DNA of 64,000 nucleotides from IMG/VR virus record IMGVR_UViG_3300033121_001335, positions 1-64,000 of that record; one strand, 5' to 3'. Within the stretch, counting starts at the first letter, position 1; every line of letters begins with the position of its first letter. Below the pieces are notes generated by a model, which worked only from the letters and a program-made list of their open reading frames with translations, was not told the origin of the DNA and searched no databases. The position numbers and the translations under genes were made by a program. Shown here piece by piece: positions 29,335-58,111 of the stretch. The DNA is from a virus. Taxonomy: Duplodnaviria > Heunggongvirae > Uroviricota > Caudoviricetes.

Positions 29335-29361
29335 AATTAAATAAAAATTAAAAACAAAGTT

Positions 29362-29702: not shown

Positions 29703-29714
29703 AAATTTTAAAAC

Positions 29715-29954: not shown

Positions 29955-29959
29955 AAAAT

Positions 29960-31312: not shown

Positions 31313-31323
31313 AACTATATAAT

Positions 31324-31608: not shown

Positions 31609-31654
31609 GGAATCAATTTTTAATTATAAACAAACAAATCAAAAAACAAACAAA

Positions 31655-32119: not shown

Positions 32120-32143
32120 TTTTTTTGTTGATTATTAAACTAA

Positions 32144-32179
32144 AGGGTGTGTAGTTTTTATAGCTGCACACCCTTTTTA
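32144..32179 (+). terminator. rho-independent terminator
   Basis: agggtgtg...cacaccct followed by ttttt. Confidence 0.6.
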
Positions 32180-32190
32180 AATTTTATTTT

Positions 32191-32451
32191 ATGAGAAATA
32201 TAATGGATTTTGATGGAAACAGAGAGCAAATAGCAGTTAATAACAATGAAGAGTTTAAAAAATTAATTCCAATTTTAAACCTAAGATTTAAAGGCTGGAA
32301 AGAAGGAATGGGAAGTGGGGATTATCCACTTTATATTATACTGGAGGGAGCATGGGATGGACATACAAACATTAAACAAATTCATAAAGCCGTAATACAA
32401 GCCTCAGAATATTATACAGAACAAGAATGTATTTCTAATATATTTAATTAA
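32191..32451 (+). CDS. small protein, family variant (ends CISNIFN)
   Basis: 86 aa. Confidence 0.45.
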   Translation: MRNIMDFDGNREQIAVNNNEEFKKLIPILNLRFKGWKEGMGSGDYPLYIILEGAWDGHTNIKQIHKAVIQASEYYTEQECISNIFN

Positions 32452-32464
32452 AACTCAGTGTTTT

Positions 32465-32734
32465 ATGGAAAAATGGTGTATTTTAAGAACCAAAGAAAAT
32501 TATATAGAACTTAACGATTGGTTTAATAAAAAGTATGGTTTAGAACTTTCAGACTGTAAAGGATATTTGCATTCTTATGTGGTGTCTCCTAATTGTGTTG
32601 TACCCTATTTAATGAGTATTTATAGCGATGGTCAAAGAGACAAAGAGGCCACAATAATAACAATAGAACAATTCAGAGAGCTAACGAAAGCTCCTGTTGA
32701 TAATAAAACTTTTGAGCCACAAATATTTAATTAA
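32465..32734 (+). CDS. small protein, PQIFN family (ends FEPQIFN)
   Basis: 89 aa. Confidence 0.5.
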   Translation: MEKWCILRTKENYIELNDWFNKKYGLELSDCKGYLHSYVVSPNCVVPYLMSIYSDGQRDKEATIITIEQFRELTKAPVDNKTFEPQIFN

Positions 32735-32740
32735 TGTATT

Positions 32741-33043
32741 ATGAGAATGAATGAATTAGAAATAGGAAATTATTATAAATCCATATGGGGTAGTGGAGAA
32801 CAATATGGTATTATAAGATATGACAATATGTTCACGGACATTAAGAGTAGTAATTATGTACATGATAATTATGTTTATTTAGGTTACAATAAAACCATAA
32901 CTGCTAAGGGGGATGGCAGCGGTGCCAGTAATGAATGGAAACCATGCACTGAAGAGGAAATAAGGATATTTGAAGACCAATTTGAAAAGCAGTTTGGCAA
33001 TAAAAAGAATAAAAAAGCATTTACGCCCTTAATATTTAACTAA
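32741..33043 (+). CDS. small protein, PLIFN family (ends FTPLIFN)
   Basis: 100 aa. Confidence 0.5.
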   Translation: MRMNELEIGNYYKSIWGSGEQYGIIRYDNMFTDIKSSNYVHDNYVYLGYNKTITAKGDGSGASNEWKPCTEEEIRIFEDQFEKQFGNKKNKKAFTPLIFN

Positions 33044-33199
33044 TTAAGGCCAATTATAGCACTCGTTTGAAATAAAACGTGAGGAAATAATAATCCAAGA
33101 TGCGTCCATAAATGCATTTGGACAAGGGTGCTTTTCATCATCCTATTTGGCCTGTGGTGCTATAAATTGGTTTTTTAATAAATTAAAAAATAAATTAAT

Positions 33200-33472
33200 A
33201 TGATAACAGAATTACCTAAAAAATGGGCAATAAGATGCACTCCAGAGAGTTCTAATTTTATAAATAAATTTTATCAAGACCATTTAAAAGAATATGAAGG
33301 TTGTAAGGGGAGATTTCCAGTAGTAATAGATGCATATTTACATTATCCTCAACATACATCAGCTTGTCATTCTAGAATGAATGGACCTGCTGAAAATTAT
33401 ACAGTGATTTCTTTTTTAGAATTTTGTACATTCGTGCTAAATCATTCAGACGAACCACAACTATTTAATTAA
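33200..33472 (+). CDS. small protein, PQLFN family (ends DEPQLFN). N-terminal LPKKWAI module.
   Basis: 90 aa. Confidence 0.5.
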   Translation: MITELPKKWAIRCTPESSNFINKFYQDHLKEYEGCKGRFPVVIDAYLHYPQHTSACHSRMNGPAENYTVISFLEFCTFVLNHSDEPQLFN

Positions 33473-33490
33473 CAAATAAAAACAAACAAA

Positions 33491-33718
33491 ATGAATCAGC
33501 AATTGACAAATTCCTATGCTCCAACACTATTTGGAAGTCCTAACATTATGGTTAAAACAGACTATAGTGTTTTTAAACAAACAGATGAGCAAAAGTCTGA
33601 TGCTATAGCAGCTAAATGGCAACATAAAATTTTTATGAATAAAAATGGCATTAATCCTAAAAAGCATCTAAACATCCCTATTTACAGACTTGAGCAATCT
33701 ATTAAATTTAGTACATAA
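33491..33718 (+). CDS. hypothetical small protein
   Basis: 75-aa ORF without the family tail. Confidence 0.35.
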   Translation: MNQQLTNSYAPTLFGSPNIMVKTDYSVFKQTDEQKSDAIAAKWQHKIFMNKNGINPKKHLNIPIYRLEQSIKFST

Positions 33719-33800
33719 TGACACCACACCATAAAAGAAAAATACATCCCATAGAACTGGTTGTTTCTATTATAGAGTTTGTGGGATTTTTATATTTATA

Positions 33801-34670
33801 TTGCTTATTAAAAACTATTTAAAAATGGAAAAAACTAATTATTTAGAAACGAAATATCAGGGGATTATTCCCTATCAAATAGAAGAAGGAAAAAAACATA
33901 TTACGTTAGCCCCCGGTGTATATCAACTTGGCTATTATGAAATTGCTCCTATGTGTATTGTTGACCACTTTATGCCATTAAAAGAGCAAGACAGTCTTAT
34001 AAGATTTAAAGATAGTGTTGTTGACGATGTAGTGAATAAGGTGGATAAATTCTTTTCTCAGAATAGTGTAGATGCCTATAAAGAATTAAAATTAGTGCAT
34101 AAAATGGGCATGATTATACATGGTCCTCATGGAACAGGTAAAACAAGTTCTGCTATGTTAGCCCTAAGAGCTATAGCTAAAAAATATGATGCTATATGTC
34201 TTGATTGTACGCCCAGAACTTTAAATAACTGTATAAACACTATAAAAAATATCAGACAGCACCAAAAAAATCCCATTATAATGTTTATGGATGAATTTGA
34301 GGTGGAAATGAGAGAAAGAGAGGAGCAGTGGCTGCCATTTTTAGATGGGACAGGAAGTTTTGAGAATTTTGTTTTTATAGCTTGCACCAATTATATAGAC
34401 AAAATTCCTGATAGGATAAAAGATAGAAAATCCAGAATTAAACACATTGTGGAAATTAAGGGACTGCCAATGGCTGTATATTCTGAATATATTAAAGACA
34501 GACTTCCAAATTTAAAATCTGAAGAGTTAGCCGAATTTGCTTTTAAAGCTGAAAATGAAAAATTGACTATTGACCAAGTGAAAAATGCTCTTATAGATTA
34601 CAGAATTGAGGGCTGGTCTATAGACAAGGCTATAAAGGTGGCAGCTTCTATAAAGGACGAATCTATTTAA
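33801..34670 (+). CDS. AAA+ ATPase
   Basis: Walker A (IIHGPHGTGKTSSAM), Walker B (IIMFMDEFE) and a sensor-like C-terminal region. Confidence 0.65.
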   Translation: MLIKNYLKMEKTNYLETKYQGIIPYQIEEGKKHITLAPGVYQLGYYEIAPMCIVDHFMPLKEQDSLIRFKDSVVDDVVNKVDKFFSQNSVDAYKELKLVHKMGMIIHGPHGTGKTSSAMLALRAIAKKYDAICLDCTPRTLNNCINTIKNIRQHQKNPIIMFMDEFEVEMREREEQWLPFLDGTGSFENFVFIACTNYIDKIPDRIKDRKSRIKHIVEIKGLPMAVYSEYIKDRLPNLKSEELAEFAFKAENEKLTIDQVKNALIDYRIEGWSIDKAIKVAASIKDESI

Positions 34671-34693
34671 TCAAAATTTGAAACTAAATTATT

Positions 34694-34990
34694 ATGAGTT
34701 TATTTCCAATTCGAAAATTAAGATATGTAAAAGTGGAATCTCCATTCTTGCCTGTAAAACCCGAAAATAAGCCAGAATTTGTCTATCATGGAAGAAAAGC
34801 TTTTAGAAACCCGCCAGAGCTATTACAAGCCTATTTAAAAGGGGGTAGAAGATTTTCTGAGAAAAGGAGAGAAGAAATAAAAGAGCTCTATCCTGCCCAA
34901 ATAAAGGCTAAACCAAGGCAGAGCTTGTGGCCCAATTGTAAAACAGTGTTGGATGCTGTATTTAGTCCATTTTTAAAACCTGTAATATGA
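34694..34990 (+). CDS. hypothetical basic protein
   Basis: 98-aa ORF. Confidence 0.35.
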   Translation: MSLFPIRKLRYVKVESPFLPVKPENKPEFVYHGRKAFRNPPELLQAYLKGGRRFSEKRREEIKELYPAQIKAKPRQSLWPNCKTVLDAVFSPFLKPVI

Positions 34991-35171
34991 AATACACTGA
35001 ACAAGGATGGCATATTGAATATGACCCCTCTATAACTGAAGAAATGTTTAATGAGTTTGTAAAAACCCTTTCTAATGATGGTATTACTTTCTTTAAAAAG
35101 CTTCAACTGGAGAATAACGAAGAAGTGGAATCAGAAGCTTAATTATTTTATTAGCTTAATTATTTTAAAAA

Positions 35172-35203
35172 CAGGGGGAAGGACAAATTCTCCCTGTTTT
35201 TTA
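35172..35203 (+). terminator. rho-independent terminator
   Basis: cagggggaagg...ctccctg followed by tttttt. Confidence 0.55.
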
Positions 35204-35228
35204 TAACATTTAATTAAAAACATCAGTT

Positions 35229-35483
35229 ATGGACGAATTATTAGAACAAGCACAAAAAGACTATCCTATAGGAACTAAATTTAAAGTGGCTCATATAGAC
35301 CACAATCCTTCTGAATATATTGTAGCTGGTGGTTGGAGGTGGGAAGATAATGAAAAAAGAGTCATTCTTTGTGATGTCGTTGGAAGCGCAACGGGCTATG
35401 CCCCCTGTCTTAAATACAAGAACACATGGGCTCCTATAATAGAATTAGGAAACATTATTTTCGAACCATTAATATTTAATTAA
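35229..35483 (+). CDS. small protein, PLIFN family (ends FEPLIFN)
   Basis: 84 aa. Confidence 0.5.
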   Translation: MDELLEQAQKDYPIGTKFKVAHIDHNPSEYIVAGGWRWEDNEKRVILCDVVGSATGYAPCLKYKNTWAPIIELGNIIFEPLIFN

Positions 35484-35484
35484 T

Positions 35485-35745
35485 ATGAAACATGAAAACT
35501 TTATAGTGCAAGTGAAGACTGAAGAAGAGTTTTTAAGTGTTCTCAAATCTATGGAACACTCGCTTCCAATTTTAACATATAGTTCACACAAAGATAGTTA
35601 TAAACAGTTTGTTCCACCCACTGGTGTGTATTATATAGGTGTTCATAATAATTCTGGGTGGTATAATGGCAGCTGTTCCTATCCCTTTATAACTTTTGAA
35701 GAATTTTTACAGAAAGAAAAATCCGAGTGTATAATATTTAATTAA
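35485..35745 (+). CDS. small protein, family variant (ends SECIIFN)
   Basis: 86 aa. Confidence 0.45.
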   Translation: MKHENFIVQVKTEEEFLSVLKSMEHSLPILTYSSHKDSYKQFVPPTGVYYIGVHNNSGWYNGSCSYPFITFEEFLQKEKSECIIFN

Positions 35746-35917
35746 ATTCTTTTATGAATATATGTACGAAAATCAAGCAGAGATTTAATGAGCTAAGGAT
35801 AAAAGGTAAAAAGAGTATAAAATTTGATAAAAAGGAAACAACAGAAAAGCAACTGGAAGAACTCAGAGAATGTGGATATACAGTAAAAGAAATTAATAAT
35901 AATATAATTATATCAGA

Positions 35918-36208
35918 ATGAAAACAATAGATTATGCTGCGGGAGACATAGTAGTGTGTTTGCGGGCTATAAAAGATAGGGGCGGTAAGCATAAACAGTC
36001 TAAATCGGTTATAAAAGACTATTTTTACAAATGCATTGGTGTATATAATCCCACTGTATATAATCCAAAAGAGGGTATCACTTGTGGATTAGACGGCTTT
36101 ACATTTATTCTTACAGCTTCTAGGTTTAGAAAGGCCACAGAAGAGGAGCTGTTATTATATAATTCAGGAGCTAAATCTATTAATGTACAATATATAATTT
36201 TTAATTAA
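35918..36208 (+). CDS. small protein, family variant (ends VQYIIFN)
   Basis: 96 aa. Confidence 0.45.
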   Translation: MKTIDYAAGDIVVCLRAIKDRGGKHKQSKSVIKDYFYKCIGVYNPTVYNPKEGITCGLDGFTFILTASRFRKATEEELLLYNSGAKSINVQYIIFN

Positions 36209-36474
36209 TGAATCAACATATAATGGAAAATCTAAAAAACGCTTTTATTCCCGGTGTAAAATTTAAAAGACACCCTAATCATGTAACTTGTCTTAAAGAC
36301 AAAATATACACTGTAGCTTCTCCACTTAGGATAGTCAGCGGGAACACTACAGAAGATTTAATGGTGTGTACAGTTGAAGAAGCTTATGTACATATATGCA
36401 ATAATGGAAAAGATTGGGCTACTATTCTAGAATCTAATCCTGTAATAAATGATAATCCCTTAATATTTAACTAA
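36208..36474 (+). CDS. small protein, PLIFN family (ends NDNPLIFN)
   Basis: 88 aa. Confidence 0.5.
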   Translation: MNQHIMENLKNAFIPGVKFKRHPNHVTCLKDKIYTVASPLRIVSGNTTEDLMVCTVEEAYVHICNNGKDWATILESNPVINDNPLIFN

Positions 36475-36863
36475 TGAGTAGTATAAAATTTAATCCAATA
36501 GAAAGATTTATAATAATAGAGCCTGTAATAGATGAAGTGTATTGGCTTCAGTTTTATGATGATAGGTCTAAAACTCAACCCACTGATTATTTATGGCTCA
36601 CTAGATGGGGAAAAGACGGAAACAATAAATTTTCAATATGTACATATCATAATGAAAAATATAAAAACAGTTGGTATTCTGAAGATGTTGCAATTTTTAC
36701 ATCTTCTATATCTGGTAATAGACATAATTTATATTTACCAAGAACAGAAGAACTAGTTTGGCACAGAGCAATGGAACTCATTGGAAAAACCAGTCCCGTT
36801 TCAAATATAGAAGAGTGGCTTAAAAAAACTACAATTAATAATGATATTTTAATATTTAATTAA
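36474..36863 (+). CDS. small protein, family variant (ends NNDILIFN)
   Basis: 129 aa. Confidence 0.45.
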   Translation: MSSIKFNPIERFIIIEPVIDEVYWLQFYDDRSKTQPTDYLWLTRWGKDGNNKFSICTYHNEKYKNSWYSEDVAIFTSSISGNRHNLYLPRTEELVWHRAMELIGKTSPVSNIEEWLKKTTINNDILIFN

Positions 36864-37093
36864 TGGGAAATAAGGCAGATGAGGCTAAAGATGCCATAGA
36901 TGAGCTTCTTAAAGAAAAAGAAAGCGAAATAGAAGATTTACAATCAGAACTAGATGATATGACATCAGAAAAAGATGATTTACAAGAGCAATTGGATGAA
37001 TATAAAGAAGAAAATAAGAATCTAAAAGATATTATAGAAGCATTAGAAAACAAAATTAAACAATTAACAGCTATTCCTCATATATTTAATTAA
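36863..37093 (+). CDS. small acidic coiled-coil protein, family member (ends AIPHIFN)
   Basis: 76 aa. Confidence 0.5.
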   Translation: MGNKADEAKDAIDELLKEKESEIEDLQSELDDMTSEKDDLQEQLDEYKEENKNLKDIIEALENKIKQLTAIPHIFN

Positions 37094-37095
37094 TT

Positions 37096-37299
37096 ATGAA
37101 ACAATCAAAAGGCGTATTAATAACAGAATTAATAGTGACACTATTTCTGATGATAAGTTATATATGGTTGTGTTTATCAGATGAAGCCTCTGGGGGAATA
37201 TCCACAATGGTAGTTTGGTTTGTAGGATATATAACAATATTAGATAAAATTACTAAATTTGTAACATGGAATTTTGACCCCCAAAATTATAAAATATGA
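37096..37299 (+). CDS. small membrane protein (two transmembrane helices)
   Basis: Hydrophobic segments LITELIVTLFLMISYIWLCL and MVVWFVGYITIL. Confidence 0.35.
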   Translation: MKQSKGVLITELIVTLFLMISYIWLCLSDEASGGISTMVVWFVGYITILDKITKFVTWNFDPQNYKI

Positions 37300-37874
37300 A
37301 TAAATTTAACTGGTTGAAAAGCTTTTTTAGTCCTTTTAAAAGACCCAAAATTAAATTATATATAGGAAAGACGACTATAGGCACTCCCTATTTTCTTCCT
37401 AGAAAATGGGTTAAAATACCAAAAGAAGAAGTTATAAAACAAGCCAAAGAAAAATATGATAAGTGTCCTAAAGAATATCAAACTTTGCATCATTATAACA
37501 GTTTATTAAATTGTTGTAAAGGGATGAAACAGCCTATTTCAAAGAAAATAGGATTTGATTTTGTGGGGTTGGGGTGGAAAACTAAATTTGGCGATTACAG
37601 ACACGAGTGGAATCCTGTATGGAGCTTTGTCTTTTTTAGGTGGCAAATAGCCATACAATTTATCCCTATTCATGATATGCATTATTGGGAAGCTTGGCTA
37701 TATTATGAATTAGACACAGACAAAAGATGTAATAAAATGGAGAGGATTGATATGTGTTTAAAAAAGGCCCCCCAAATTTGGACTAGCTATAATAAAGATG
37801 GTAGTAAAACCACCACTAATTATTACACTAAAATACTGAAAAAGAAATATTTAAAACTGATAAAAAATGAGTGA
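37296..37874 (+). CDS. hypothetical protein
   Basis: 192-aa ORF. Confidence 0.4.
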   Translation: MNKFNWLKSFFSPFKRPKIKLYIGKTTIGTPYFLPRKWVKIPKEEVIKQAKEKYDKCPKEYQTLHHYNSLLNCCKGMKQPISKKIGFDFVGLGWKTKFGDYRHEWNPVWSFVFFRWQIAIQFIPIHDMHYWEAWLYYELDTDKRCNKMERIDMCLKKAPQIWTSYNKDGSKTTTNYYTKILKKKYLKLIKNE

Positions 37875-38607
37875 AATAATAGCAATCGGTGATACACATG
37901 GCAGGGCTCTTTGGAAAGATGTTGTTGAAAAGCATAAAAATGCAGATAAAATAGTGTTGATTGGAGATTATTTTGATACACATGACGACATTTCTCCAGA
38001 ACTTCAAATGATAAATTTTAGGGAAATTTGTCAGTATAAAGAAGCTCATAAAGAACAAATTGTTCTGCTTATAGGTAATCATGATGAGCACTATTTTCCA
38101 TTTATGGGAAATTCTGGTACATCTGGATTTAATGCAGGAGCTGCTCCAGCAATAGGACACTTATTAATGACATACAAAGACCTGTTACAAATGGCTCATT
38201 ATGAGGATAATATATTATTTACCCATGCTGGTGTAGGAGAAACATGGTTTAATGCTAATATTCCCGAAATAAAAGAAGAATGGAGCGCTAAATATATGTC
38301 AGACAGCATTAATGATGTATGGAAATATAAACCTCTTTCTTTTAAATTTAACGGTTGGAGAGATTCATCGGGGGACGAAATAGGACAAACACCAATATGG
38401 ATAAGACCCAGAGCTTTATTACAAGACACTAAAAATATGAGAAAAGCTGGAATTATTCAAATAGTTGGACATACGCAGGTGACTAAAATTGATGTAGAGG
38501 GTAGTAAGAAAAATACAGGAGGGAAACTGTTTATGATAGATGCTCTGGGTACATCCGGAGAATATTTAGTTATTAAAGATGGAGAATTTATTGTTAAAAA
38601 ATGCTAA
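37867..38607 (+). CDS. Ser/Thr protein phosphatase, calcineurin-like metallophosphoesterase (PP-lambda type)
   Basis: Motifs GDTHGR, GDYFD and GNHDEHY. Confidence 0.7.
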   Translation: MSEIIAIGDTHGRALWKDVVEKHKNADKIVLIGDYFDTHDDISPELQMINFREICQYKEAHKEQIVLLIGNHDEHYFPFMGNSGTSGFNAGAAPAIGHLLMTYKDLLQMAHYEDNILFTHAGVGETWFNANIPEIKEEWSAKYMSDSINDVWKYKPLSFKFNGWRDSSGDEIGQTPIWIRPRALLQDTKNMRKAGIIQIVGHTQVTKIDVEGSKKNTGGKLFMIDALGTSGEYLVIKDGEFIVKKC

Positions 38608-38610
38608 AAT

Positions 38611-38907
38611 ATGAAATATAGTAAAGAATTAAATGGTGTGTACCACGCTAAAAATCATACATATACATATCTGGTAGAATTTAATAATGGAATTAGTGGA
38701 TGTGGATTAAAGAATGGCAATAATGCTAGAGATAATAATTTTGATGTATTTTTTACCACTTCTGATTTTAATAAAAATTCAGATGGTTATGACTACGTTT
38801 TAGCAGATGAACGCCATACAAATTGGCTGAAATCATGTAAGAAAATAGGAAAATTTACATTAGAAATAAAACAAATAGAATTGGTGGAACCATTATTATT
38901 TAATTAA
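38611..38907 (+). CDS. small protein, PLLFN family (ends VEPLLFN)
   Basis: 98 aa. Confidence 0.5.
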   Translation: MKYSKELNGVYHAKNHTYTYLVEFNNGISGCGLKNGNNARDNNFDVFFTTSDFNKNSDGYDYVLADERHTNWLKSCKKIGKFTLEIKQIELVEPLLFN

Positions 38908-38920
38908 AACAAGAAAAATT

Positions 38921-39283
38921 ATGAAAGAAGAAAAAATTATTGATAAAACAAAAAATTCAATAAACACCTTACATCCCTACAGATTAGCAAATGACTTATG
39001 GGTTTATGATGATGAAGATTTGGGGGTTTATAGCGAAGCCTTCGTTATGGGTAGTTCTGAGGTAATAAATCATCTGGTAGGTATGGAATGTGATAAATTT
39101 ACTATGTTTATATCTGCACAACCTATACCAGAATATGATGCACATTTAGTAAAAATTAAGGGGGATGGCAGTGAGGGCTGGTATCAATTACAAGGTACTG
39201 GAATGGAGCATTGGCTATGTGGGCAGGTGCTGGCTTATTTCCCAGATTATCCTTCAGACATATATGTGAAGTTGAAAAAATAA
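38921..39283 (+). CDS. hypothetical protein
   Basis: 120-aa ORF. Confidence 0.4.
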   Translation: MKEEKIIDKTKNSINTLHPYRLANDLWVYDDEDLGVYSEAFVMGSSEVINHLVGMECDKFTMFISAQPIPEYDAHLVKIKGDGSEGWYQLQGTGMEHWLCGQVLAYFPDYPSDIYVKLKK

Positions 39284-39332
39284 ATTTGGATAAAAGTAAT
39301 AAAATATACGCATTAATTAAAGTTTAATAAAT

Positions 39333-40202
39333 ATGGCAAAATTTAAAAAGGGTGACATAGTAGTTCTTAAAAAAGACTCTGAATATTATATCCCCAAAGC
39401 CCCAAAATATAGTAGTAATCCAATTCATACAGAAGGAGTTATTACTTCAGTAAGTTCAGGAGAATTTGGCATTCAAGTAAAATGGAATAACAACACTACA
39501 AATGGTTATTCTTTTAAAGATTTAGAATTATTCAATCAAAAAACAGAAAAAATGGCAACAAGAAAAACAACAACAAAACAATTTCAATTAGAAGCCGGAC
39601 AGTATTTTACAGCTACTTATGGCAAGAAAAAGGTGAGAGGAGTGGTGGCGGACGCACCAGATGATTACGATAATTTTGTATTATATGGAAAAGATTTTGA
39701 TGATGATGCCGAAGATGATGACGCAGAATTTAGCACACAATTATACATCGATATGTATGGGAGGGAGGACCAAAGTCACACAGATGTGTTAAAAGACTAC
39801 GGAATTACTAATTTTGTTTTATTAACAGATAAGAGACAAAAGGCTATTGTTGATGGAGATAAATGCCTAACTGTAGCGGGACATAAAGTGCATATTAAGG
39901 GTAATTTCGTAAATTTTGGGTGTGGCGCTGTTAGCACCACTAAAAAAGAAATAAAAGACTTTTATGCAGTGTATAAGGATGTAGATGTAAATGAGCATAT
40001 GCGTTATAAAGAGTTGATAGACGAAATAGGCGAAACAGCATTTGAAGAGGCTGTAGCTTTTTATAATCAATTCAAAATGTACACTACAGCTCAGCAAAAG
40101 GCATTTAATAATCTTGTAAAAGAAATGGATAATGCTGACAATGTACTCTTAGAAGATTTGAATAGGAAAGAAGTGGATGAATTAATGAAGAAATTAGACT
40201 AA
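39333..40202 (+). CDS. hypothetical protein with the N-terminal FKKGDIVVL small-barrel-like module
   Basis: 289-aa ORF followed by a terminator. Confidence 0.45.
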   Translation: MAKFKKGDIVVLKKDSEYYIPKAPKYSSNPIHTEGVITSVSSGEFGIQVKWNNNTTNGYSFKDLELFNQKTEKMATRKTTTKQFQLEAGQYFTATYGKKKVRGVVADAPDDYDNFVLYGKDFDDDAEDDDAEFSTQLYIDMYGREDQSHTDVLKDYGITNFVLLTDKRQKAIVDGDKCLTVAGHKVHIKGNFVNFGCGAVSTTKKEIKDFYAVYKDVDVNEHMRYKELIDEIGETAFEEAVAFYNQFKMYTTAQQKAFNNLVKEMDNADNVLLEDLNRKEVDELMKKLD

Positions 40203-40212
40203 AAATAAAAAA

Positions 40213-40238
40213 AGAGGGGAGAAATTCCCTCTTTTTTC
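40213..40238 (+). terminator. rho-independent terminator
   Basis: agaggggagaaattccctct followed by tttttc. Confidence 0.55.
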
Positions 40239-40246
40239 TTAAATTT

Positions 40247-42181
40247 GTGCCTATGTTAGAAAATAATGTATATATATTTGATATTGAAGGTGATGGTTTG
40301 CTTTCTACTATTACGAAAATTCATTGCGTTTGTGCATATAACATAAAAACCAGAGAAGCTGTACAATTGACTAATTATCAAGAAATTGAACAATTTTTTT
40401 CTGACGAAAAAGCCACTTTTATAGGACATAATATTATACGTTTTGACATTCCGGCATTAAAAAAGATAATAAAGGTAGAAATAAGGGGTGATGTAATTGA
40501 TACACTAGCAATATCGTGGGTGTTAGAAGAAAACAGAAAAAATCATGGATTGGGGAGCTACGGAGAGGAGTTTAATATAAAAAAACCAGAAATAAAAGAT
40601 TGGAACAGCCTTACAGTAGAGGAATACATTCATAGGTGCTCCGAAGATGTAAAAATAAACACCACTTTATGGAACAGGCAAATAAAATATTTAAAACAAG
40701 TTTATTATCAAGATGATAAGAATTTATATAGGTGGTTTAAATATCTGAGATTTAAACTAGAGTGTGTGTATGAACAAGAAACTGAGGGGCTGAGATTAGA
40801 TGTTAATAAAGCTAAAAAGCACTTTAATGAGCTCTCTATTCTTAAAGAGGAAAAAATCAAAGAATTAGAAGCTGCTATGCCTAGAGTAGCCATTAAAAAA
40901 AAGAGGGTGTATAAAGATGCTGTAAAAGATAGTAATGGTAATGTTTTTGAAAAGGGTGACCTGTTTTATAATTCTCAACCTATTAGCAGGAAAAAAGAAG
41001 AAATAATAGAAGAAAAAATCATAGGTTGGAAAGAGCCTAATGCTAATAGTCATGTTCAGATAAAGAATTGGTTATACAATTTAGGTTGGATACCACAAAA
41101 TATACAGCATAAAAGAAATAAAAAAACTGGTGAGATAAAACTTATTCCTCAAATAAAAAGCCAATTTGAAATAGGAGAAATATGTGATAGTGTTAAATTA
41201 CTATTTAAAAAAGAACCAAAATTAGAGGCTTTAGGAGGATTGTCGGTGCTTACCCATCGTATTAGTATATTTGAAGGATTCATATCCGATGAGGAAAATG
41301 GACGCATATATCCCTCTATGAATGGTTTAACTAACACCCTGCGTCTTAAACATAGGGTAATTGTCAATCTACCTAGGGCTGGGAGGGCGTATGGGGAGGA
41401 CATTAGGGGGTGTTTAATAGCTGATGAAGGATGCATTTTATGTGGAAGTGATTTAAGCGGTATAGAGGATAGCACTAAAAGACATTTTATATATGATTAT
41501 GACCCTGAATATGTAAAAAGTATGGACACTCCGGGGTATGACCCCCATTTAGAGCTCGCTGTATTGGCAAAATTTATGACCAAAGAGGATGCTGATTGGT
41601 ATAAGGAAGAATCCAAAAAACGTAAAGATGAAGCCTATAAAGCCTCTACAGAAGACAATCAGAGGTTTACAGCTTTAACAGCTAAAAGGTATGTGGCTAA
41701 AACTACTAACTTTGCAGCAACATATAAAGTAGGAGCTAAGGCCTTAAGTGTATATCCCGGTATTAATTTAGGAATGAAGGAAGCAAAGAGGGTAATAGAT
41801 ACATATTGGAAAAGAAATAAGGCTATTTTGGACGTAGAAAATAGTTTAAATGTCAAAGAGGTATATGGGCAAAAATGGCTTTTTAATCCTGTTAGTAGAT
41901 TTTGGTATACATTAAGGGCTGATAAAGATAGATTTAGTACATTAAATCAGAGTACGGCTGTATTTGTATTTGATAAGTGGCTTACAGAAATTAAAAAAGC
42001 TGGTGTTAAAATACCATTCCAATACCATGATGAAATAGGATTTAATGTTAAAAAAGAGAAAAAAAGAGAAAATACAGCGATTATTAAACAAGCCATACAA
42101 ACTGTTAACGACAAATTAAAACTAAATATAACAATAGGATGCAGTGTTGATTATGGTAAAAAATATAGTGATATACATTAA
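40247..42181 (+). CDS. DNA polymerase, family A (Pol I-like), with an N-terminal 3'-5' exonuclease domain
   Basis: Exo I-like YIFDIEGDGL at the N-terminus. Pol A motif B-like RYVAKTTNFAATYKVGAKAL and motif C QYHDE. Confidence 0.65.
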   Translation: MPMLENNVYIFDIEGDGLLSTITKIHCVCAYNIKTREAVQLTNYQEIEQFFSDEKATFIGHNIIRFDIPALKKIIKVEIRGDVIDTLAISWVLEENRKNHGLGSYGEEFNIKKPEIKDWNSLTVEEYIHRCSEDVKINTTLWNRQIKYLKQVYYQDDKNLYRWFKYLRFKLECVYEQETEGLRLDVNKAKKHFNELSILKEEKIKELEAAMPRVAIKKKRVYKDAVKDSNGNVFEKGDLFYNSQPISRKKEEIIEEKIIGWKEPNANSHVQIKNWLYNLGWIPQNIQHKRNKKTGEIKLIPQIKSQFEIGEICDSVKLLFKKEPKLEALGGLSVLTHRISIFEGFISDEENGRIYPSMNGLTNTLRLKHRVIVNLPRAGRAYGEDIRGCLIADEGCILCGSDLSGIEDSTKRHFIYDYDPEYVKSMDTPGYDPHLELAVLAKFMTKEDADWYKEESKKRKDEAYKASTEDNQRFTALTAKRYVAKTTNFAATYKVGAKALSVYPGINLGMKEAKRVIDTYWKRNKAILDVENSLNVKEVYGQKWLFNPVSRFWYTLRADKDRFSTLNQSTAVFVFDKWLTEIKKAGVKIPFQYHDEIGFNVKKEKKRENTAIIKQAIQTVNDKLKLNITIGCSVDYGKKYSDIH

Positions 42182-42183
42182 TT

Positions 42184-42375
42184 ATGGAAAACTTAAAATT
42201 AGACATATTCAAAAAACAAGAAAGCGCCTACTATCCTATACATTCAAAGAACTATTGTTGGAAGGGAATATTTGAATATTTAATGTGGTATAAGGTGGAA
42301 GAAAAAACAACATTAATTAGTGTGGGAACTAAAGGACTTTTAGCCTTTAATATTCCTGCTTTTTGTTTAAATTAA
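42184..42375 (+). CDS. hypothetical small protein
   Basis: 63-aa ORF. Confidence 0.3.
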   Translation: MENLKLDIFKKQESAYYPIHSKNYCWKGIFEYLMWYKVEEKTTLISVGTKGLLAFNIPAFCLN

Positions 42376-42381
42376 TAAATT

Positions 42382-42618
42382 ATGGAAAAGAAAATAGCAG
42401 TGTATTGTCCCACCCCAGAAATATTTGAATTAGTTGCTAGCAAAATTAATTGGCCTCATGGGAATATTTGGTCTAACTACCAAGAACGTACTGTAGTAGA
42501 CATTTCTCTTAAACAATATTGTAATAGAGAATATTATGAAAATAAAAAAGAAAAATATAATATACTCACCTATAGTGAATGGATTGGTGAGGATGGGGAT
42601 GTATTAATTTTTAATTAA
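42382..42618 (+). CDS. small protein, family variant (ends GDVLIFN)
   Basis: 78 aa. Confidence 0.45.
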   Translation: MEKKIAVYCPTPEIFELVASKINWPHGNIWSNYQERTVVDISLKQYCNREYYENKKEKYNILTYSEWIGEDGDVLIFN

Positions 42619-42624
42619 AAAATT

Positions 42625-42909
42625 ATGGAAAAATTACCAGAAAAATGGTTTATTAACCCAACCAATGAAAATGAGAGCATGGCTGTATCAAATTGGTTTG
42701 CCCAATATAGAAAATACTCAAAAGGATGTGAAGAATCATATAATTGGTATTTTCCGGCTTATGAAAATAGTGGAGAATTACAATTTTGTTATACACACGG
42801 AAAAGTAAAAGGCAATTTAATGGATGGCTACGAACAAATAACGTTTTCTCAATTTAAACAATACGTTCTAGAAGAAAATGATATTTTTACTCCCTTAATA
42901 TTTAATTAA
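42625..42909 (+). CDS. small protein, PLIFN family (ends IFTPLIFN). N-terminal LPEKWFI module.
   Basis: 94 aa. Confidence 0.5.
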   Translation: MEKLPEKWFINPTNENESMAVSNWFAQYRKYSKGCEESYNWYFPAYENSGELQFCYTHGKVKGNLMDGYEQITFSQFKQYVLEENDIFTPLIFN

Positions 42910-52141: not shown

Positions 52142-52477
52142 ATGAAAAAGAGATTATATTTCCAAGTGTGTAGCGCTTGTGGTTCAAAAGAAGTGGCAAG
52201 ATGTAAATGGGTAAATGTAAATGATGACACTATATATGACCAAGATTCAGGAACAACCCTAGAATGGTGCATGGAATGTGAAGATGAAACAAGTATAATT
52301 GAAGAAAATGAGTTTAAAGAATCATTTTTAGAAGAAATTCCCGGAAATGAATCTAAACCCTCTTGTGAAAATTGCGGAAGTCCAAACATAGAATGGCATC
52401 ATTATGATAAGAAAAGTGGGGAGCATTTTATAAAATGCTACAAATGTAACCACATTTTTGATGCTTCTTTAAGATAG
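52142..52477 (+). CDS. double zinc-ribbon protein
   Basis: Four CxxC pairs: CSACGS, CMECED, CENCGS, CYKCNH. Confidence 0.45.
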   Translation: MKKRLYFQVCSACGSKEVARCKWVNVNDDTIYDQDSGTTLEWCMECEDETSIIEENEFKESFLEEIPGNESKPSCENCGSPNIEWHHYDKKSGEHFIKCYKCNHIFDASLR

Positions 52478-52884: not shown

Positions 52885-53325
52885 ATGGCACAGACAAAGA
52901 GAAACGCAGTGGTAGCTTCGCCAGCTTCTAATCAGGCAAAAAAGTATGAAACAAACGCAACAACATGGGGCGAATTTAAGAAAGAAATTTCTGATTTGAT
53001 GGTGGGTAATGTTGAGGCTATTCTTAATCCGGGAAATGTCACTCTGAACAGAGATGATGCAGCTCTTCCCACAGGAGACTTCAGGGTGTTTTTGATTCCT
53101 ACAAAAAATAAAGCAGGAGTTATGAGTCCATCACAAGCACAAGGACTGGCTAAAGAAATCGGTGATGCTATTGTAGCTGCGGCTTCAAAGGCTTCAGATG
53201 ATGATGTACAAGAACTGAGAAACCAGCTTCGTGAAACTATCGAAGACTTTTTCGGAGTGAGTTTGGATAATGATTGCCCAGAATGCGATGAGGCACTAAA
53301 AGAGGCCAAAGCTTATTTAAGCTAA
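52885..53325 (+). CDS. hypothetical protein
   Basis: 146-aa ORF followed by a terminator. Confidence 0.4.
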   Translation: MAQTKRNAVVASPASNQAKKYETNATTWGEFKKEISDLMVGNVEAILNPGNVTLNRDDAALPTGDFRVFLIPTKNKAGVMSPSQAQGLAKEIGDAIVAAASKASDDDVQELRNQLRETIEDFFGVSLDNDCPECDEALKEAKAYLS

Positions 53326-53345
53326 TTTTTTTTTGATTGTTTAAA

Positions 53346-53372
53346 AAGGGGGTGTAAAAGCCCCCTTTTTAT
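53346..53372 (+). terminator. rho-independent terminator
   Basis: ggggg-tgtaaaag-ccccc followed by ttttt. Confidence 0.6.
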
Positions 53373-53387
53373 TTTAATTTATTTATT

Positions 53388-54566
53388 ATGGCAGAAACAT
53401 ATAAAATAGGTGATTATGTAGTGCTTTCTTCTACAAGACCTAGAGGTTGGACCACTTTTATGGACGAGTATTTAGGAAAAATTGTAGAAATAACTTATGT
53501 AGGGGGGAGAACATTTAATTGGCTAGGAAATGTTCGGGGATATACATTTGAATTAACTGATATTGTAAGAAAGGCTACTGATGAGGAAATAAAAGAGGTA
53601 ATAAGGAAGGAAGAAATAAAAAAACAGGAATTTAAAGAAAAATATAAACATTATATATTCGAAACAGATAAATTGGAGAAATTAGCTATAAGTGTATTTG
53701 GAAATGATAGGGTGTATATTGAAGATAAAAATGACCATATATATTTATATATACATTTTCCTGAAATAAACATCACCAATAGTTTAGAGCAAAAACATTT
53801 AATAAAAGACCTATATACAAGATTTAGTTTTACTGTAAGAAAAAACAATTTTGAAACGTCTGGTTATAAACTAAATTTAAGTTTTGCTGGTAGAAGGAGT
53901 TCTCTTTCTTTAAAAGAATATGAAAGTAGCTATAGACATAGTCATTTACAAAGTGGTCAAAATACATTCACTGAGTTTTGTTTAGGAAGCAGCGATTATT
54001 CTTTATTATTACAGAGTTTACAAATAGAGCCTATAGAGGATAATTGGATGATGGTGTTATTAGGATTGGAAAATTATTTAACTTGGGAAAGTTTAGAGGG
54101 TGGCCCATATATGACAATAGATAGTTTAAAATATAACAATAACAGGAGTGGTAGTGAGCTTGCAGCAGAAGCTAAAAGACTGGCAGGAGGCATACCAAAT
54201 GTTTGTTGGGAATTTATAAGTTCTAAATTTGGGCTAATTCCTAATCACCCATTATTATATAATTATTTTGATAAGAATTCTATAATAAGAAATCTCCATG
54301 CTTATTCCAAAGAGGAAGCTAAAGCAGCTGCTAAAAAAGCCACCAGTGAGCTCAATGGATATAGTTTAAATTGGAAGGGGAAGGATATAAATATGAGGGT
54401 GTATGCAGAGGATGAGACGGATGGAGATAACACCCTGAGCAGGGAAGTGGTGATAAAATATTGTGAAATATTATCAGATGAGAGTGTCAAATTTTTAAAA
54501 AATAGTCAATATGAAAGAGGAAAAGAAAGAAACGAAAAAAGAGTCTTTGGAAAAATTAGAGCTTAG
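53388..54566 (+). CDS. hypothetical protein upstream of the JAB and E1 genes. Candidate E2-like (UBC-fold) partner, weakly supported.
   Basis: 392 aa. It has the N-terminal YKIGDYVVL barrel-like module. HSHLQSGQNTFTEFCLGSSDY loosely resembles the UBC HPN...C-L active-site region. Its end overlaps the JAB start. Confidence 0.25.
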   Translation: MAETYKIGDYVVLSSTRPRGWTTFMDEYLGKIVEITYVGGRTFNWLGNVRGYTFELTDIVRKATDEEIKEVIRKEEIKKQEFKEKYKHYIFETDKLEKLAISVFGNDRVYIEDKNDHIYLYIHFPEINITNSLEQKHLIKDLYTRFSFTVRKNNFETSGYKLNLSFAGRRSSLSLKEYESSYRHSHLQSGQNTFTEFCLGSSDYSLLLQSLQIEPIEDNWMMVLLGLENYLTWESLEGGPYMTIDSLKYNNNRSGSELAAEAKRLAGGIPNVCWEFISSKFGLIPNHPLLYNYFDKNSIIRNLHAYSKEEAKAAAKKATSELNGYSLNWKGKDINMRVYAEDETDGDNTLSREVVIKYCEILSDESVKFLKNSQYERGKERNEKRVFGKIRA

Positions 54567-55791
54567 TAACAAGCCTACATTGGTTATAACTAAGGAATTA
54601 TGTGATAAAATAGCTTTTTTGCATAGCAAAGAAGATGTAGAATGGAGTGGGGAACTTATAGTGAGGGAAGAGGGTACAATAAATGATTTAGACGAATGGA
54701 AGCTTATAGCTGAAGATGTATTCCTCGTGGATATAGGTTCTTCTTCTTATACAGCCTATGAAGTGGGTAAGGGGAGTTTTCAAACAGACGATATAATGGA
54801 AATGTACGAAAAACATCCGGGATTATTAGAGGGCACACATAAACAACATCATATTCATTCACATAATAGTATGGGCTGTTTCTTTAGTGGAACAGACTGG
54901 GACCAAATGAATGACAGATGTTTAGTGAGTAACTATCTTCTTATGTTAATTGTAAATTTTGATGGAAAATGGTGCGCAAAGGTAGGATTTAAAGCCAAAA
55001 AAGAAGGAAATTCAGGAACTACACTCAATTTTGCTAATAATGCAGATGGTTTAAAACCACTAGTGCTAAAGGGAGATAAATCTGATGACGTATTGGTGGT
55101 TATGGATTGTAAAATTGTTAAAGAAAATAGTGTGACAGTGCCAGATGATTTTGTAAAAAGGTATGACACTGTTAAAAAGGTAAAAGAAGAGGCCAAAAAG
55201 AAAGAAGAAAAAGCAAGGCAATTTAGTGGTGGTGCTTACAACCGAGTGGGGCCTAAAAAAGATTGGAAACAACCTGTTCTAGGAGGCAGAGAAGATTGGA
55301 TGAGAGATGCTTGGGATGGTGTTGAAGAAGAGGATAGTGTGGATGATTACGAAAAAATAAATGGTGTTTGGAAGAAAACTAAAAATAAGCAGAAAAGAAT
55401 CAGTGAAATGACAGAAAAAGAATGGAATGAGAGTCAAAGCACTGGTGTAGGAAGTTTTACCATAGCTCATGCCAAAGCTCTTTTAAATTCCATTTTAGAT
55501 GGGACATATATGGCTTATGATTACTCAGACCCAATGAAGAAAATAGAAGAACAAGAGTCTAAACTAGTGAGGGGCACTGATGATTATGAAAAATATGTTG
55601 ATGAGTTTGCAGAGCTCCTTCAAGAACATTTTGATGTAATATTTTTATATAAAAATCAAAATGACTATATAGAACTTATGAATCAAGTGTTAGAATATTT
55701 AATTCCATACACATTTAGGAGTGATTTAGTGTCTATGATGATAGAAGCAGTAAAAATTGAAATTGAACTATATAAAGAACCTGTAATATGA
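54511..55791 (+). CDS. JAB/MPN+ (JAMM) metallopeptidase, deubiquitinase-like
   Basis: HSHNSMGCFFSGTD fits the JAMM signature HxH-x7-S-x2-D exactly, with an upstream acidic EWSGE. The C-terminal half is Lys/Glu-rich. Confidence 0.65.
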   Translation: MKEEKKETKKESLEKLELSNKPTLVITKELCDKIAFLHSKEDVEWSGELIVREEGTINDLDEWKLIAEDVFLVDIGSSSYTAYEVGKGSFQTDDIMEMYEKHPGLLEGTHKQHHIHSHNSMGCFFSGTDWDQMNDRCLVSNYLLMLIVNFDGKWCAKVGFKAKKEGNSGTTLNFANNADGLKPLVLKGDKSDDVLVVMDCKIVKENSVTVPDDFVKRYDTVKKVKEEAKKKEEKARQFSGGAYNRVGPKKDWKQPVLGGREDWMRDAWDGVEEEDSVDDYEKINGVWKKTKNKQKRISEMTEKEWNESQSTGVGSFTIAHAKALLNSILDGTYMAYDYSDPMKKIEEQESKLVRGTDDYEKYVDEFAELLQEHFDVIFLYKNQNDYIELMNQVLEYLIPYTFRSDLVSMMIEAVKIEIELYKEPVI

Positions 55792-56516
55792 GAGAACAAA
55801 CAACAAGAACAACAAGATTTAGTGGGGCTGATTGGTCAGACCAACTAAAAACCATCTATCTTATAGGACTGGGTGGAATAGGCAGCTATGTTGCTTATAA
55901 TTTAGCCAGAATAGGACATCAATTGATTTTAATTGATGGTGATATTGTTGATGAAACAAATGTAAATGGAGGACAGCTCTATCGTGTAGCAGATGTTGGT
56001 AAATATAAGGTGGACGTTATGCAAGAAATATGCAGACAATTTGGTGGAATAGGTGGAATTAGTGCTTACAGTACAAATTATGAAGAAGAGAATTTTGGTG
56101 CTAATGATATTACAATATGTGGACTGGATAATATGGCGGCCAGAAAACAAGTGTTTGAGGCCTGGGTTGATGGATTTTATGGGGACAAAGATGCTCTTTA
56201 TATTGATGGCAGACTTTTAATGGAAAGTATGGAAATATTTGCTATAAAAGGTGATGATGAAGAAGCTATTAGTAAATATAGGGAGGAACATTTATTTGAT
56301 GATAGTGAAGTGGCTGATTTAGACTGTACATCCAAACAAAGCTCATTTGCAGGGATGATTATAGCTGGTATGATGACAGCAATATTGTGTAATCATTTAA
56401 CCAACCGAAAAATGGGAATGGATTTTAGAACTGTACCATTTTATCAAAGGCTTCACCTGCCCATATTTAAACATGATGTTATAGAATCAACTATAGAAAA
56501 GGAGGCTTTGGTGTAA
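55788..56516 (+). CDS. E1-like ThiF/MoeB-family adenylyltransferase (ubiquitin-activating-like)
   Basis: Rossmann YLIGLGGIGSYVAYNLA followed by IDGDIVDETNVNGQ (consensus VDxDxVxxSNLxRQ) and VGKYKVDV. Size about 240 aa. Confidence 0.7.
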   Translation: MREQTTRTTRFSGADWSDQLKTIYLIGLGGIGSYVAYNLARIGHQLILIDGDIVDETNVNGGQLYRVADVGKYKVDVMQEICRQFGGIGGISAYSTNYEEENFGANDITICGLDNMAARKQVFEAWVDGFYGDKDALYIDGRLLMESMEIFAIKGDDEEAISKYREEHLFDDSEVADLDCTSKQSSFAGMIIAGMMTAILCNHLTNRKMGMDFRTVPFYQRLHLPIFKHDVIESTIEKEALV

Positions 56517-56517
56517 T

Positions 56518-57603
56518 ATGGCTAGAAAAGAAAAACCTATATACGAAAAAATACCCACCACAGGAGAACTAGTGGAATTAGACGGAACAAGTGAATATTT
56601 AAGGAATCATAATGGTTTTTATGCGCCGGAAAGGAATAATTTAACAATGAGCGTATATAGTGATTTTATTCCTTTATTGTATTTGACATCCGGGTTAAGA
56701 GCTCCTAGAATGAGGGTGAGTCAAAATTCTTATTTAAATATAGTGGGAATAGAGAAAGAAAAATATGTTGAAGAAGACTATCATAAATGGAAAGAAAAAT
56801 ATTTGCGTGGAGTGATTAGTGGATATTACGATAGTTCTTTTTCTTTTGATAAAAATCAGAATATTATAGGATTACATTACGAGCTTAAAAGATGGATTGA
56901 AATGGATTCTAAGATGGATGTAGAAAGCTTGATTCCATACCCATCGCATTCTTGGAGTGTTTGTGATAGAACTGCCGTATTAAATAGAATGGGCAGATTT
57001 CAAATTGGAAGCAGTTGTCAACGAACTTACAGGGTGGGGACAAGTGCTTTTTCTTTATATTTAGCAAACAATCAACAATGGACTCCGCATGTTTTAGCTG
57101 TAGTGCTCCCGGAAAACTACATCTATTTGAAATATAAACTATTAACACAGAATGTGTTAGACCTTAGTAAGGTGATTATACTAATAGATAGGGAATTGGA
57201 TACAACAACCTTTCCAAAGCAGCCCTTTAGAAAGCTTTATAGGGAAGGTATGATGCCACGCATAATGAAAAGCGCTTGTGATGTTTGGAGAGTGCCTCAA
57301 AGTTTTATAAAGGAAAAATGTTTTGTAGAACCGTTTAGTTTAAGAGGAATCGGACCTTTAGAGAGAAAAAGGGTGTTAGACCAACTTATCGAAGGATTTG
57401 TAAGTTTTTTAGATGAGAAAAAAGAAGAAGATAAGTATAAAGCCCTTCTTACTTCTTCATTGACTGAAGCTTTTCAACAAATAACTGCTACAAGTGGACT
57501 TTATAACATTTCTACAAATCAACAAGGACAATCTAGTGCTGATGCCATATATGTGGGAGGAGTAGACCCAATAGATATAGTTTATGAAGAAAATAGAAAT
57601 TAA
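56518..57603 (+). CDS. hypothetical protein downstream of E1. Candidate partner or target in the Ubl-like module.
   Basis: 361-aa ORF whose start abuts the E1 stop. A terminator follows. Confidence 0.35.
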   Translation: MARKEKPIYEKIPTTGELVELDGTSEYLRNHNGFYAPERNNLTMSVYSDFIPLLYLTSGLRAPRMRVSQNSYLNIVGIEKEKYVEEDYHKWKEKYLRGVISGYYDSSFSFDKNQNIIGLHYELKRWIEMDSKMDVESLIPYPSHSWSVCDRTAVLNRMGRFQIGSSCQRTYRVGTSAFSLYLANNQQWTPHVLAVVLPENYIYLKYKLLTQNVLDLSKVIILIDRELDTTTFPKQPFRKLYREGMMPRIMKSACDVWRVPQSFIKEKCFVEPFSLRGIGPLERKRVLDQLIEGFVSFLDEKKEEDKYKALLTSSLTEAFQQITATSGLYNISTNQQGQSSADAIYVGGVDPIDIVYEENRN

Positions 57604-57658: not shown

Positions 57659-58111
57659 ATGAGAAGAAAAAAAGGAAAAAAGCCTATAAAGGCTAGAACA
57701 GACACATCATCTAAGAAACGCAAGGCTGTAAAGAAGAAAATAGCATCAAAAAGAAAGGCTGCCCCAAAAACCAGAAATGCTGGCAGATGGTCAGAAGGAG
57801 AGTTCTGGCAATCAATTCGTTCGGCTTTGAGAAATCGAACCAGATTTTGGGTTCCTAAATTGGAAGCTTTAAAGAAGGCTAGAAGGCCGTCTCAGAGTGT
57901 TAATAAGCGACTTAAATGGGAGTTTATGTGTGCTGAATGTAAAAACTGGTTTCCTCAGAAGGGTGTACAAGTGCATCATGATGTAGAGGCTGGAAAGCTT
58001 AATTCAGCAGAAGATTTAGCTGGATTTGTAGAGAGACTTTTTGCTGAAGAGGGTTGGACAGTTATGTGTCGGGGATGTCATTCTGAACATCATAAAAAAT
58101 TAAAACAATAA
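57659..58111 (+). CDS. HNH endonuclease
   Basis: Basic N-terminus, then VQVHHDVEAGKLN...CRGCHSEHH (HNH plus zinc-binding Cys and His residues). Confidence 0.5.
   Translation: MRRKKGKKPIKARTDTSSKKRKAVKKKIASKRKAAPKTRNAGRWSEGEFWQSIRSALRNRTRFWVPKLEALKKARRPSQSVNKRLKWEFMCAECKNWFPQKGVQVHHDVEAGKLNSAEDLAGFVERLFAEEGWTVMCRGCHSEHHKKLKQ

Follow-up and report, generated by a model that had tools for sequence, protein, structure and literature searches.

The window analysed here, that is the whole 64,000-nucleotide stretch at positions 1-64,000 of the IMG/VR virus record IMGVR_UViG_3300033121_001335 (Caudoviricetes; all coordinates refer to the window), contains at 52885-57603 a five-gene cassette that probably encodes a self-contained pathway for the activation and conjugation of a ubiquitin-like protein (Ubl) of a crAss-like phage. 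The genes all lie on the + strand in the order U (52885-53325, a putative Ubl precursor of 146 amino acids, aa), A (53388-54566, a candidate E2-like protein of 392 aa), B (54511-55791, a JAMM/JAB metallopeptidase of 426 aa), C (55788-56516, an E1-like adenylating enzyme of 242 aa) and D (56518-57603, a fifth gene of 361 aa), and they are tightly packed, with overlaps of 56 nucleotides between A and B and of 4 nucleotides (ATGA) between B and C, and a gap of 1 nucleotide between C and D. Family and fold assignments, invariant catalytic residues and conserved gene order are what the analysis shows, and they carry this reading. A first-pass annotation of the same DNA had delimited A to D as four open reading frames (ORFs) on the + strand, which is confirmed, and had interpreted them as a phage-encoded Ubl-conjugation module, a core reading that appears to hold as far as sequence and structural modelling go. 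It had also stated that no Ubl was nearby, which is wrong: the ORF directly upstream, 52885-53325, encodes a beta-grasp protein with an invariant Gly, so that the feature should start at 52885. The phage identity of the window is evident from the major head protein, portal and large terminase genes on its – strand; its + strand carries genes for a DNA polymerase, helicases, a primase, a UDG and a PD-(D/E)XK exonuclease, and the cassette is located within this replication gene block.

The E1-like enzyme C consists solely of a minimal ThiF/MoeB-type domain and scores 68.6 bits against Pfam ThiF (PF00899; cut-off 28.1, E 6e-19). In the PDB, a profile built from C and three relatives matches MccB (2.7e-10), PaaA (4.4e-9), UBA3, UBA5, TcdA, ThiF, Cap2 and BubCD. 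These are without exception adenylating enzymes of the E1 superfamily. No dehydrogenase, the example given beforehand of a family that would overturn an E1-like assignment, is among them, and the assignment stands. The motifs quoted in the first-pass annotation are all present (GLGGIGS, DGDIVDETNVNGGQ and VGKYKVDV in C, HSH...FC-L in A, HSHNSMGCFFSGTD in B), although DGDIVDETNVNGGQ had been quoted one G short. Invariant in 79 distinct C sequences are R10 (the Arg finger), G27-x-G-G, D50, K74, D114-N-x3-R119 and Cys180, the P-loop G27-L-G-G-I-G-S33 being encoded at 55866-55886 and Cys180 at 56325-56327. In this superfamily the GxGxxG loop binds the nucleotide, the Asp matched by D50 its ribose, the Lys matched by K74 its phosphate and the Asp of the DN...R motif Mg. 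In conjugating E1 enzymes a catalytic Cys of the crossover loop is required for thioester formation and, judged by motif, Cys180 would lie just ahead of the helix that follows this loop. In 79/79 sequences Gly stands where the canonical N-x-x-R-Q motif has its Arg (residues 58-63 read N-V-N-G-G-Q in the window and N-M-S-G-Q in most relatives). Since the motif residues are invariant in 76-79 distinct homologues that share just 20-40% overall identity, they are, together with the ThiF score, beyond what chance would produce.

Public records label the cassette proteins “thiamine biosynthesis”, “metalloprotease” or “hypothetical”. The first of these labels has no specific support and is unfounded, because C stays far below the NCBIfam ThiF/MoeB equivalog cut-offs (at best 59.6 bits against 159 for NF006395, the rest far lower), and the systematic mis-annotation “thiamine biosynthesis protein ThiF” can be corrected accordingly. 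Against TIGR03736 (PRTRC_ThiF) C reaches 45.1 bits, the cut-off being 144.75, and the other PRTRC models are unmatched. PADLOC gives weak E1-E2 and BilD profile matches to C, the latter at 32.5 bits and in the Rossmann part. In gut crAss-like phages (L001:7185-8336 and most gut-clade loci) the E1s begin with 60-200 poorly conserved residues, an N-terminal extension that the window E1 lacks.

The second enzyme, B, is assigned to the JAMM family of JAB proteins on the basis of a complete motif and of Prok-JAB matches throughout its family. The predicted JAB domain spans residues ~24-165 (54580-55005) and contains E44 (54640-54642) and H116-S-H118-x7-S126-x2-D129 (54856-54897), these residues (E44, H116, H118, S126 and D129) being invariant in 76/77 sequences. 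The window protein alone has no Pfam match at E<=1, while 14 of 16 diverse relatives match Prok-JAB (PF14464; best E 6.8e-6), and the three PDB entries that the family profile matches best are JAMM proteins, among them CSN5b and the archaeal JAMM1, aligned at the motif with weak E values of 0.065-0.37. A placement of 54511-55791 outside the JAMM family, which would have spoken against the earlier call, was thus not found. The C-terminal 260 residues of B are mostly helical and conserved within the family.

The substrate of such a pathway would be provided by U. Its residues 1-72 form a beta-grasp domain, and a flexible tail (residues 73-78, TKNKAG) runs up to the invariant Gly78 (codon 53116-53118), six residues past the strand at 66-72. 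The C-terminal extension, residues 79-146, is helical and bears a conserved DCPEC motif; as encoded, the protein continues for 68 residues past Gly78. This Gly is kept in 314/315 distinct U sequences as the last residue of the motif K-[KQ]-x-[KR]-[SA]-G, after which comes A, I or V, and the extension beyond it varies from 66 to 206 residues and is alignable within clades only. In the window clade the conserved part of the extension (window residues 120-146) reads ...EDFFGV.L..DCPEC..AL.EAK.YM; in the gut clade there is a helix-extension-helix-like stretch (weak Pfam HeH matches in 3 members) and a conserved C-terminal ...S..EID.MF. Database searches return 5461 U relatives with a broad profile and 491 with a narrower one, and by hidden Markov model (HMM) iteration the family adjoins A in 80/84 loci. 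No Ubl Pfam family (ThiS, MoaD, ubiquitin or Prok_Ub) is matched by any of 29 members, and a PDB profile search with U gave no Ubl match; the sequence reads like a ThiS/MoaD-type beta-grasp, and U appears to be a new sequence family of this fold.

The gene structure of U differs among relatives. In L080:2946-4247 the Ubl gene is interrupted, two codons past that for the invariant Gly, by an inserted ORF for an HNH-type homing endonuclease, so that a Ubl ORF of 91 aa is parted from an ORF for the extension; in L027 and L034 a 179-aa ORF stands between the Ubl gene and the E2-like gene. A distant cassette at L098:5920-9449 (contig of an uncultured bacterium), with a partial copy at L097:695-2638 (contig of a Woesearchaeota metagenome-assembled genome, MAG), encodes a free-standing 75-aa Ubl that matches Pfam ThiS and has the C-terminus ...PKVAG-AL. 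In the bacterial Bil system the JAB protein BilC cuts BilA between Gly97 and Ala98, ahead of E1/E2-dependent conjugation (PMC10557695). The split gene, the free-standing Ubl and the cut of BilA all fit a modifier that is released at the Gly, and we infer that U is cleaved after Gly78 by the JAB protein.

Between U and the enzyme genes, a terminator scan detected a terminator-like hairpin on the + strand (53342-53371), with a 12-bp stem, a GGGGG/CCCCC core and a T-run after the stem. Of 12 diverse related loci, 10 have a hairpin with T-run at the same place between U and A, the sequences of the stems being unrelated. It would act as an attenuator, the Ubl being expressed above the enzymes, and an excess of Ubl produced in this way fits its role as a substrate. 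A scan for sigma-70-type promoters gave results not above chance level.

For A, the likeness to E2 enzymes is seen in the predicted structure. An AlphaFold model made from 22 sequences is confident (pLDDT 82, pTM 0.65) and shows, after an SH3/KOW-like beta-barrel (residues 1-62) specific to the window clade, a UBC/UEV/RWD-like core at residues ~93-232 (53664-54083), made up of a helix, a sheet of four antiparallel strands and two further helices as in UBC-type folds, followed by a C-terminal alpha/beta domain. Y182, H184, S185, H186, C198, G200, E234, S235, G238 and P240 are invariant in the family. HPN is absent; H184-S185-H186 (53937-53945) and, 12 residues past it, Cys198 (53979-53981) are borne by the loop that joins strand 4 to the following helix, which would correspond to the loop of HPN and the catalytic Cys in E2 enzymes. 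The 311-aa protein of the distant L098/L097 cassette contains in its C-terminus “NHPHVDAQGKPCLG”, where HP-x is followed after eight residues by Cys (HPH-x8-C-L-G), as in classical E2s; hhalign aligns the HxH...C...PY-R-[LI]-E motifs of the A core with those of the L098 protein at a probability of only 7-9%, which we take as no more than a hint.

The window protein A and 17 of its relatives match none of the Pfam UQ_con and Prok-E2 families, a profile search of the PDB found no E2 sequence, and an hhalign comparison of the A core with a manually entered UBE2D2 sequence gave an insignificant probability of 0.6%. Since no sequence method ties A to E2 families, the E2 call, which the first-pass annotation had offered for 53388-54566 as a candidate, rests on fold, active-site position and context, and is retained with moderate strength; A would then be a new sequence family of UBC-like fold. 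Homology of A to gp78 of crAss001 and gp54 of the Flavobacterium phage Fpv3 is found only by pairwise BLASTP and HMM searches, tblastn giving no match in phage records. In broad alignments of A, and likewise of D, no stretch is sufficiently conserved to serve as a query.

The fifth gene is not the same in all clades. D has a conserved core at residues ~190-300 (PHVLAVVLPENY...CDVWKVP...KCF), with invariant Cys254 and Cys268, and homologues in 119 clusters; in the four related loci where both genes were detected (L084, L085, L086 and L088) a D-family gene with 25-49% identity to D lies directly 3' of the E1 gene. D has no Pfam or PDB match and no tblastn match in phage records. In the gut clade a conserved protein X of ~256 aa occupies the fifth position instead of D, and still other proteins are found there in Fpv3 and L005. 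D shows no similarity to crAss001 gp75 or Fpv3 gp51 by BLASTP and is unrelated to protein X by hhalign (probability 0.2%), so that the candidate of a single conserved fifth gene was rejected. The earlier proposal of 56518-57603 as a partner ORF is thus correct for the window clade, where it is a member of the cassette, and does not extend to the gut clade, Fpv3 and L005, whose fifth proteins are unrelated or different. D may be a clade-specific specificity factor or target.

The order Ubl, E2-like, JAB, E1 and fifth gene is found in the replication block of 80/84 crAss-like loci. It is present in crAss001 (gp79-gp75), Kolpuevirus, Fpv3 (gp55-gp51) and the 80 IMG/VR loci retrieved, and the wider order is kept too, from the primase gene through U, A, B, C and the fifth gene to the UDG and exonuclease genes. 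Cultured phages with the cassette are crAss001, DAC15/17, the crAssBcn isolates and Flavobacterium psychrophilum phages, and their availability makes it directly testable. The cassette is conserved in crAss-like phages, with thousands of metagenomic Ubl homologues and the E1 encoded on 363 IMG/VR contigs, which were found by an alignment-based search, a scan of IMG/VR with the single C sequence giving no match. In a collection of phage records, 74 of which matched, the matches listed are Steigviridae-type crAss-like phages and Fipvunavirus, and the prototypical crAssphage is not among them. The window DNA itself has no blastn match to known phages in distant mode; kinship is detectable at the protein level only.

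Cellular genomes were scanned as one genome for each of 185,579 bacterial and archaeal species, and full-length E1 relatives were limited to five crAss-like contigs binned into MAGs, three of which have enough flanking sequence and contain the whole cassette. The distant L098/L097 cassette introduced above encodes an E1 of 223 aa related to C at 28-29% identity; in L098 a Prok-JAB protein with a zinc ribbon and another ORF of 326 aa follow, and genes for a HerA/VirB4-like ATPase and a DUF2958 protein adjoin.

Among the known systems, Bil is similar in having separate Ubl, E2, JAB deubiquitinase and E1 proteins, and the phage [SA]-G / [AIV] motif has the same form as the Gly97/Ala98 cut site of BilA. 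By contrast, Bil comes from a bacterial defence island and the cassette from a lytic phage; the phage Ubl has an extension of 66-206 residues, that of the characterised E. aridi BilA being one residue; the phage E1 is a minimal domain; the E2-like protein, at 392 aa, has extra domains and shows HSH where the usual motif would stand; and there is a fifth gene. Of the Bil profiles in PADLOC, none matches U, A or B, and the E1 has only the weak BilD match given above. In type II CBASS (cyclic oligonucleotide-based antiphage signalling system), E1, E2 and JAB chemistry likewise resides on a mobile immunity-related locus, and Cap2 is among the matches of the phage E1; Cap2, however, has E2 and E1 fused in one protein and conjugates a CD-NTase by its C-terminus, without a Ubl, whereas the cassette has separate genes, and window 50-61 kb contains no CD-NTase or effector family. 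Likenesses to Bub (BubA/BubB/BubCD) are weak, and the Bub E1 lies in the larger fused BubCD. ThiS-ThiF and MoaD-MoeB likewise pair a beta-grasp protein, whose Gly is reactive, with a minimal E1-like enzyme of ~240 aa, but here CxxC zinc motifs and a sulfurtransferase partner are absent, and E2-like and JAB genes are present.

The cassette has the domain repertoire and operon logic of the prokaryotic Ubl/E2-like/E1-like/JAB operons, often on mobile elements, described by Iyer, Burroughs and Aravind (2006, Table 1, rows 6a-6d; PMC1779556), some of whose E2-like families also deviate from HPN (PMC1779556). Those operons come from bacterial chromosomes, integrative and conjugative elements and plasmids, whereas the cassette belongs to the replication module of crAss-like phages. 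None of the existing Pfam models recognises its Ubl family or its E2-like family. In phages Lambda and T1, TAPI is a Ubl with a C-terminal domain, and TAPK, a JAB plus NlpC/P60 protein, is predicted to cut it at the Gly (PMC1779556). The cassette shares with this pair a phage Ubl, a conserved Gly ending the beta-grasp, a linker with C-terminal domain and an adjoining JAB (PMC1779556), but TAPI/TAPK belong to a tail module without E1 or E2, both of which the cassette has, in a replication module. From these comparisons the cassette appears to be a new phage-borne variant of the known Ubl/E1/E2/JAB operons; it falls outside Bil, CBASS type II, PRTRC and the ThiF/MoeB equivalogs.

If these assignments are correct, a mechanism can be proposed. 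The Ubl would be made in excess as a 146-aa precursor, read-through to the enzyme genes being dampened by the hairpin after U. The JAB protein would cut the precursor after Gly78 (K-N-K-A-G / V-M), freeing the 68-residue extension as BilC acts on BilA, and the E1 would adenylate the exposed Gly carboxylate, with a thioester on Cys180 being possible. The Ubl could then be handed to Cys198 of the E2-like protein and on to lysines of phage or host targets, and the same JAB could reverse the modification. The fifth protein, D here and others in other clades, would perhaps confer specificity or be a substrate itself. Thioester transfer, conjugation and the targets are what we infer from the assignments above. 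Given its position in the replication block of a lytic phage, the cassette most likely serves to take over the host or control the replication phase, or to counter host Ubl-based immunity. We advance more tentatively the wider proposal that one crAss-like lineage (Steigviridae-type gut phages, Fipvunavirus and aquatic relatives) may run its own ubiquitination-like cascade during infection, with clade-specific fifth genes picking the targets, which would mirror and perhaps oppose the Bil of the host.

Other readings have to be weighed against a conjugation pathway that tags proteins for the phage. The first assigns a counter-defence role to the same chemistry: the JAB would strip Ubl or CD-NTase conjugates of the host, while the Ubl, E1 and E2 of the phage would act as competitors of the host machinery (Bil-type or CBASS type II) or misdirect it. 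Host Bil conjugates its Ubl against phage assembly and Bil JAB enzymes undo the conjugation; the weak PADLOC E1-E2 and BilD matches of the phage E1 point the same way, as does the cellular scan, where full-length E1 relatives and the complete cassette occur on crAss-like phage contigs only and not on other bacterial or archaeal ones. A deconjugase alone would suffice for this purpose, yet in ~80 loci the Ubl, the E2-like protein and the E1 are conserved together, their catalytic residues intact, and no BilA, BilB, BilC or Cap3 profile is matched, which makes counter-defence unlikely as the main role.

Sulfur transfer is also quite unlikely. It would make U a ThiS/MoaD-type carrier, trimmed by the JAB and adenylated by the E1, whose thiocarboxylate would serve to produce thio-modified phage DNA, nucleotides or tRNA, with A as a sulfur-transfer or modification enzyme using H184, H186 and C198. 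Trimming of sulfur carriers by JAB proteins has precedents in CysO/Mec+ and QbsE/QbsD, and the position in a block for replication and nucleotide metabolism would suit. The cassette, however, contains no rhodanese, cysteine desulfurase or other sulfurtransferase domain, the E1 falls far under every ThiF and MoeB equivalog cut-off, and sulfur-carrier pathways have nothing equivalent to the large variable extension of U or to the fifth gene; the UBC/UEV/RWD-like fold of the A core is, to our knowledge, not used in any known one. The first-pass annotation had allowed that C and B might be a bare sulfur-carrier fragment, and this is not what is found, as E2-like and Ubl partners accompany the E1 and the JAB.

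It is very unlikely that the cassette proteins form a scaffold devoid of catalysis, since the catalytic residues of the E1 and the JAB, H184, H186 and C198 of A, and Gly78 of U are invariant across clades at 20-40% identity, and such conservation across diverged clades favours a retained chemistry.

MccB acts on the C-terminal Asn of MccA, and an analogous adenylation, by the phage E1, of the C-terminal Asn of small phage proteins ending in ...P-[LQ]-[IL]-F-N, tails that had been suggested earlier as a substrate, is most improbable: MccB and PaaA are the best PDB sequence matches of the E1 profile, and the FN ending occurs in 21/122 window ORFs with synonymous codon variation in the tail, but Fpv3 has the whole cassette and no FN-tailed ORF, the [IL]FN ending is found in 1/5902 ORFs of all fetched loci (the tails being rejected as E1 substrates on this co-occurrence), the MccB similarity is limited to the Rossmann core (residues 19-103), C starts ~20 residues ahead of the P-loop at residue 27 and so has neither the N-terminal peptide-clamp domain of MccB-type enzymes nor space for one, and the co-inherited Ubl with its invariant Gly is a better substrate candidate. 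As an observation in its own right, the 21 FN-tailed ORFs are small (68-129 aa), lie on the + strand at window 27236-42909 and end in ...[ET]-P-[LQ]-[IL]-F-N-stop, usually encoded as ATA TTT AAT TAA with some synonymous variants (AAC, TTC, CCN), the DNA past the stop being unconserved.

Literature searches on crAss-like phages with ThiF, JAB or ubiquitin found no description of the cassette in the library searched; the only related text found, dated 2026, makes a passing remark on a UBA5-like gut-phage protein family.

Recent work has shown that bacteria use Ubl conjugation as a weapon against phages, in Bil and in CBASS type II. If phages own a complete cascade as well, protein tagging would be present on both sides of the phage-host conflict, and the cassette would be a virus-owned protein-tagging system in bacteria. 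Roles as Ubl precursor and, as a candidate, E2-like protein can meanwhile be offered for two proteins so far annotated as hypothetical.

Two further ORFs are found in the vicinity of the cassette. An HNH endonuclease ORF (phrog_1985, E 5e-19) lies at window 57659-58111, between D and the PD-(D/E)XK exonuclease gene, and two genes upstream of U, at window 52142-52477, an ORF of 111 aa contains four Cys pairs (CSAC, CMEC, CENC and CYKC), which suggest a double zinc ribbon.

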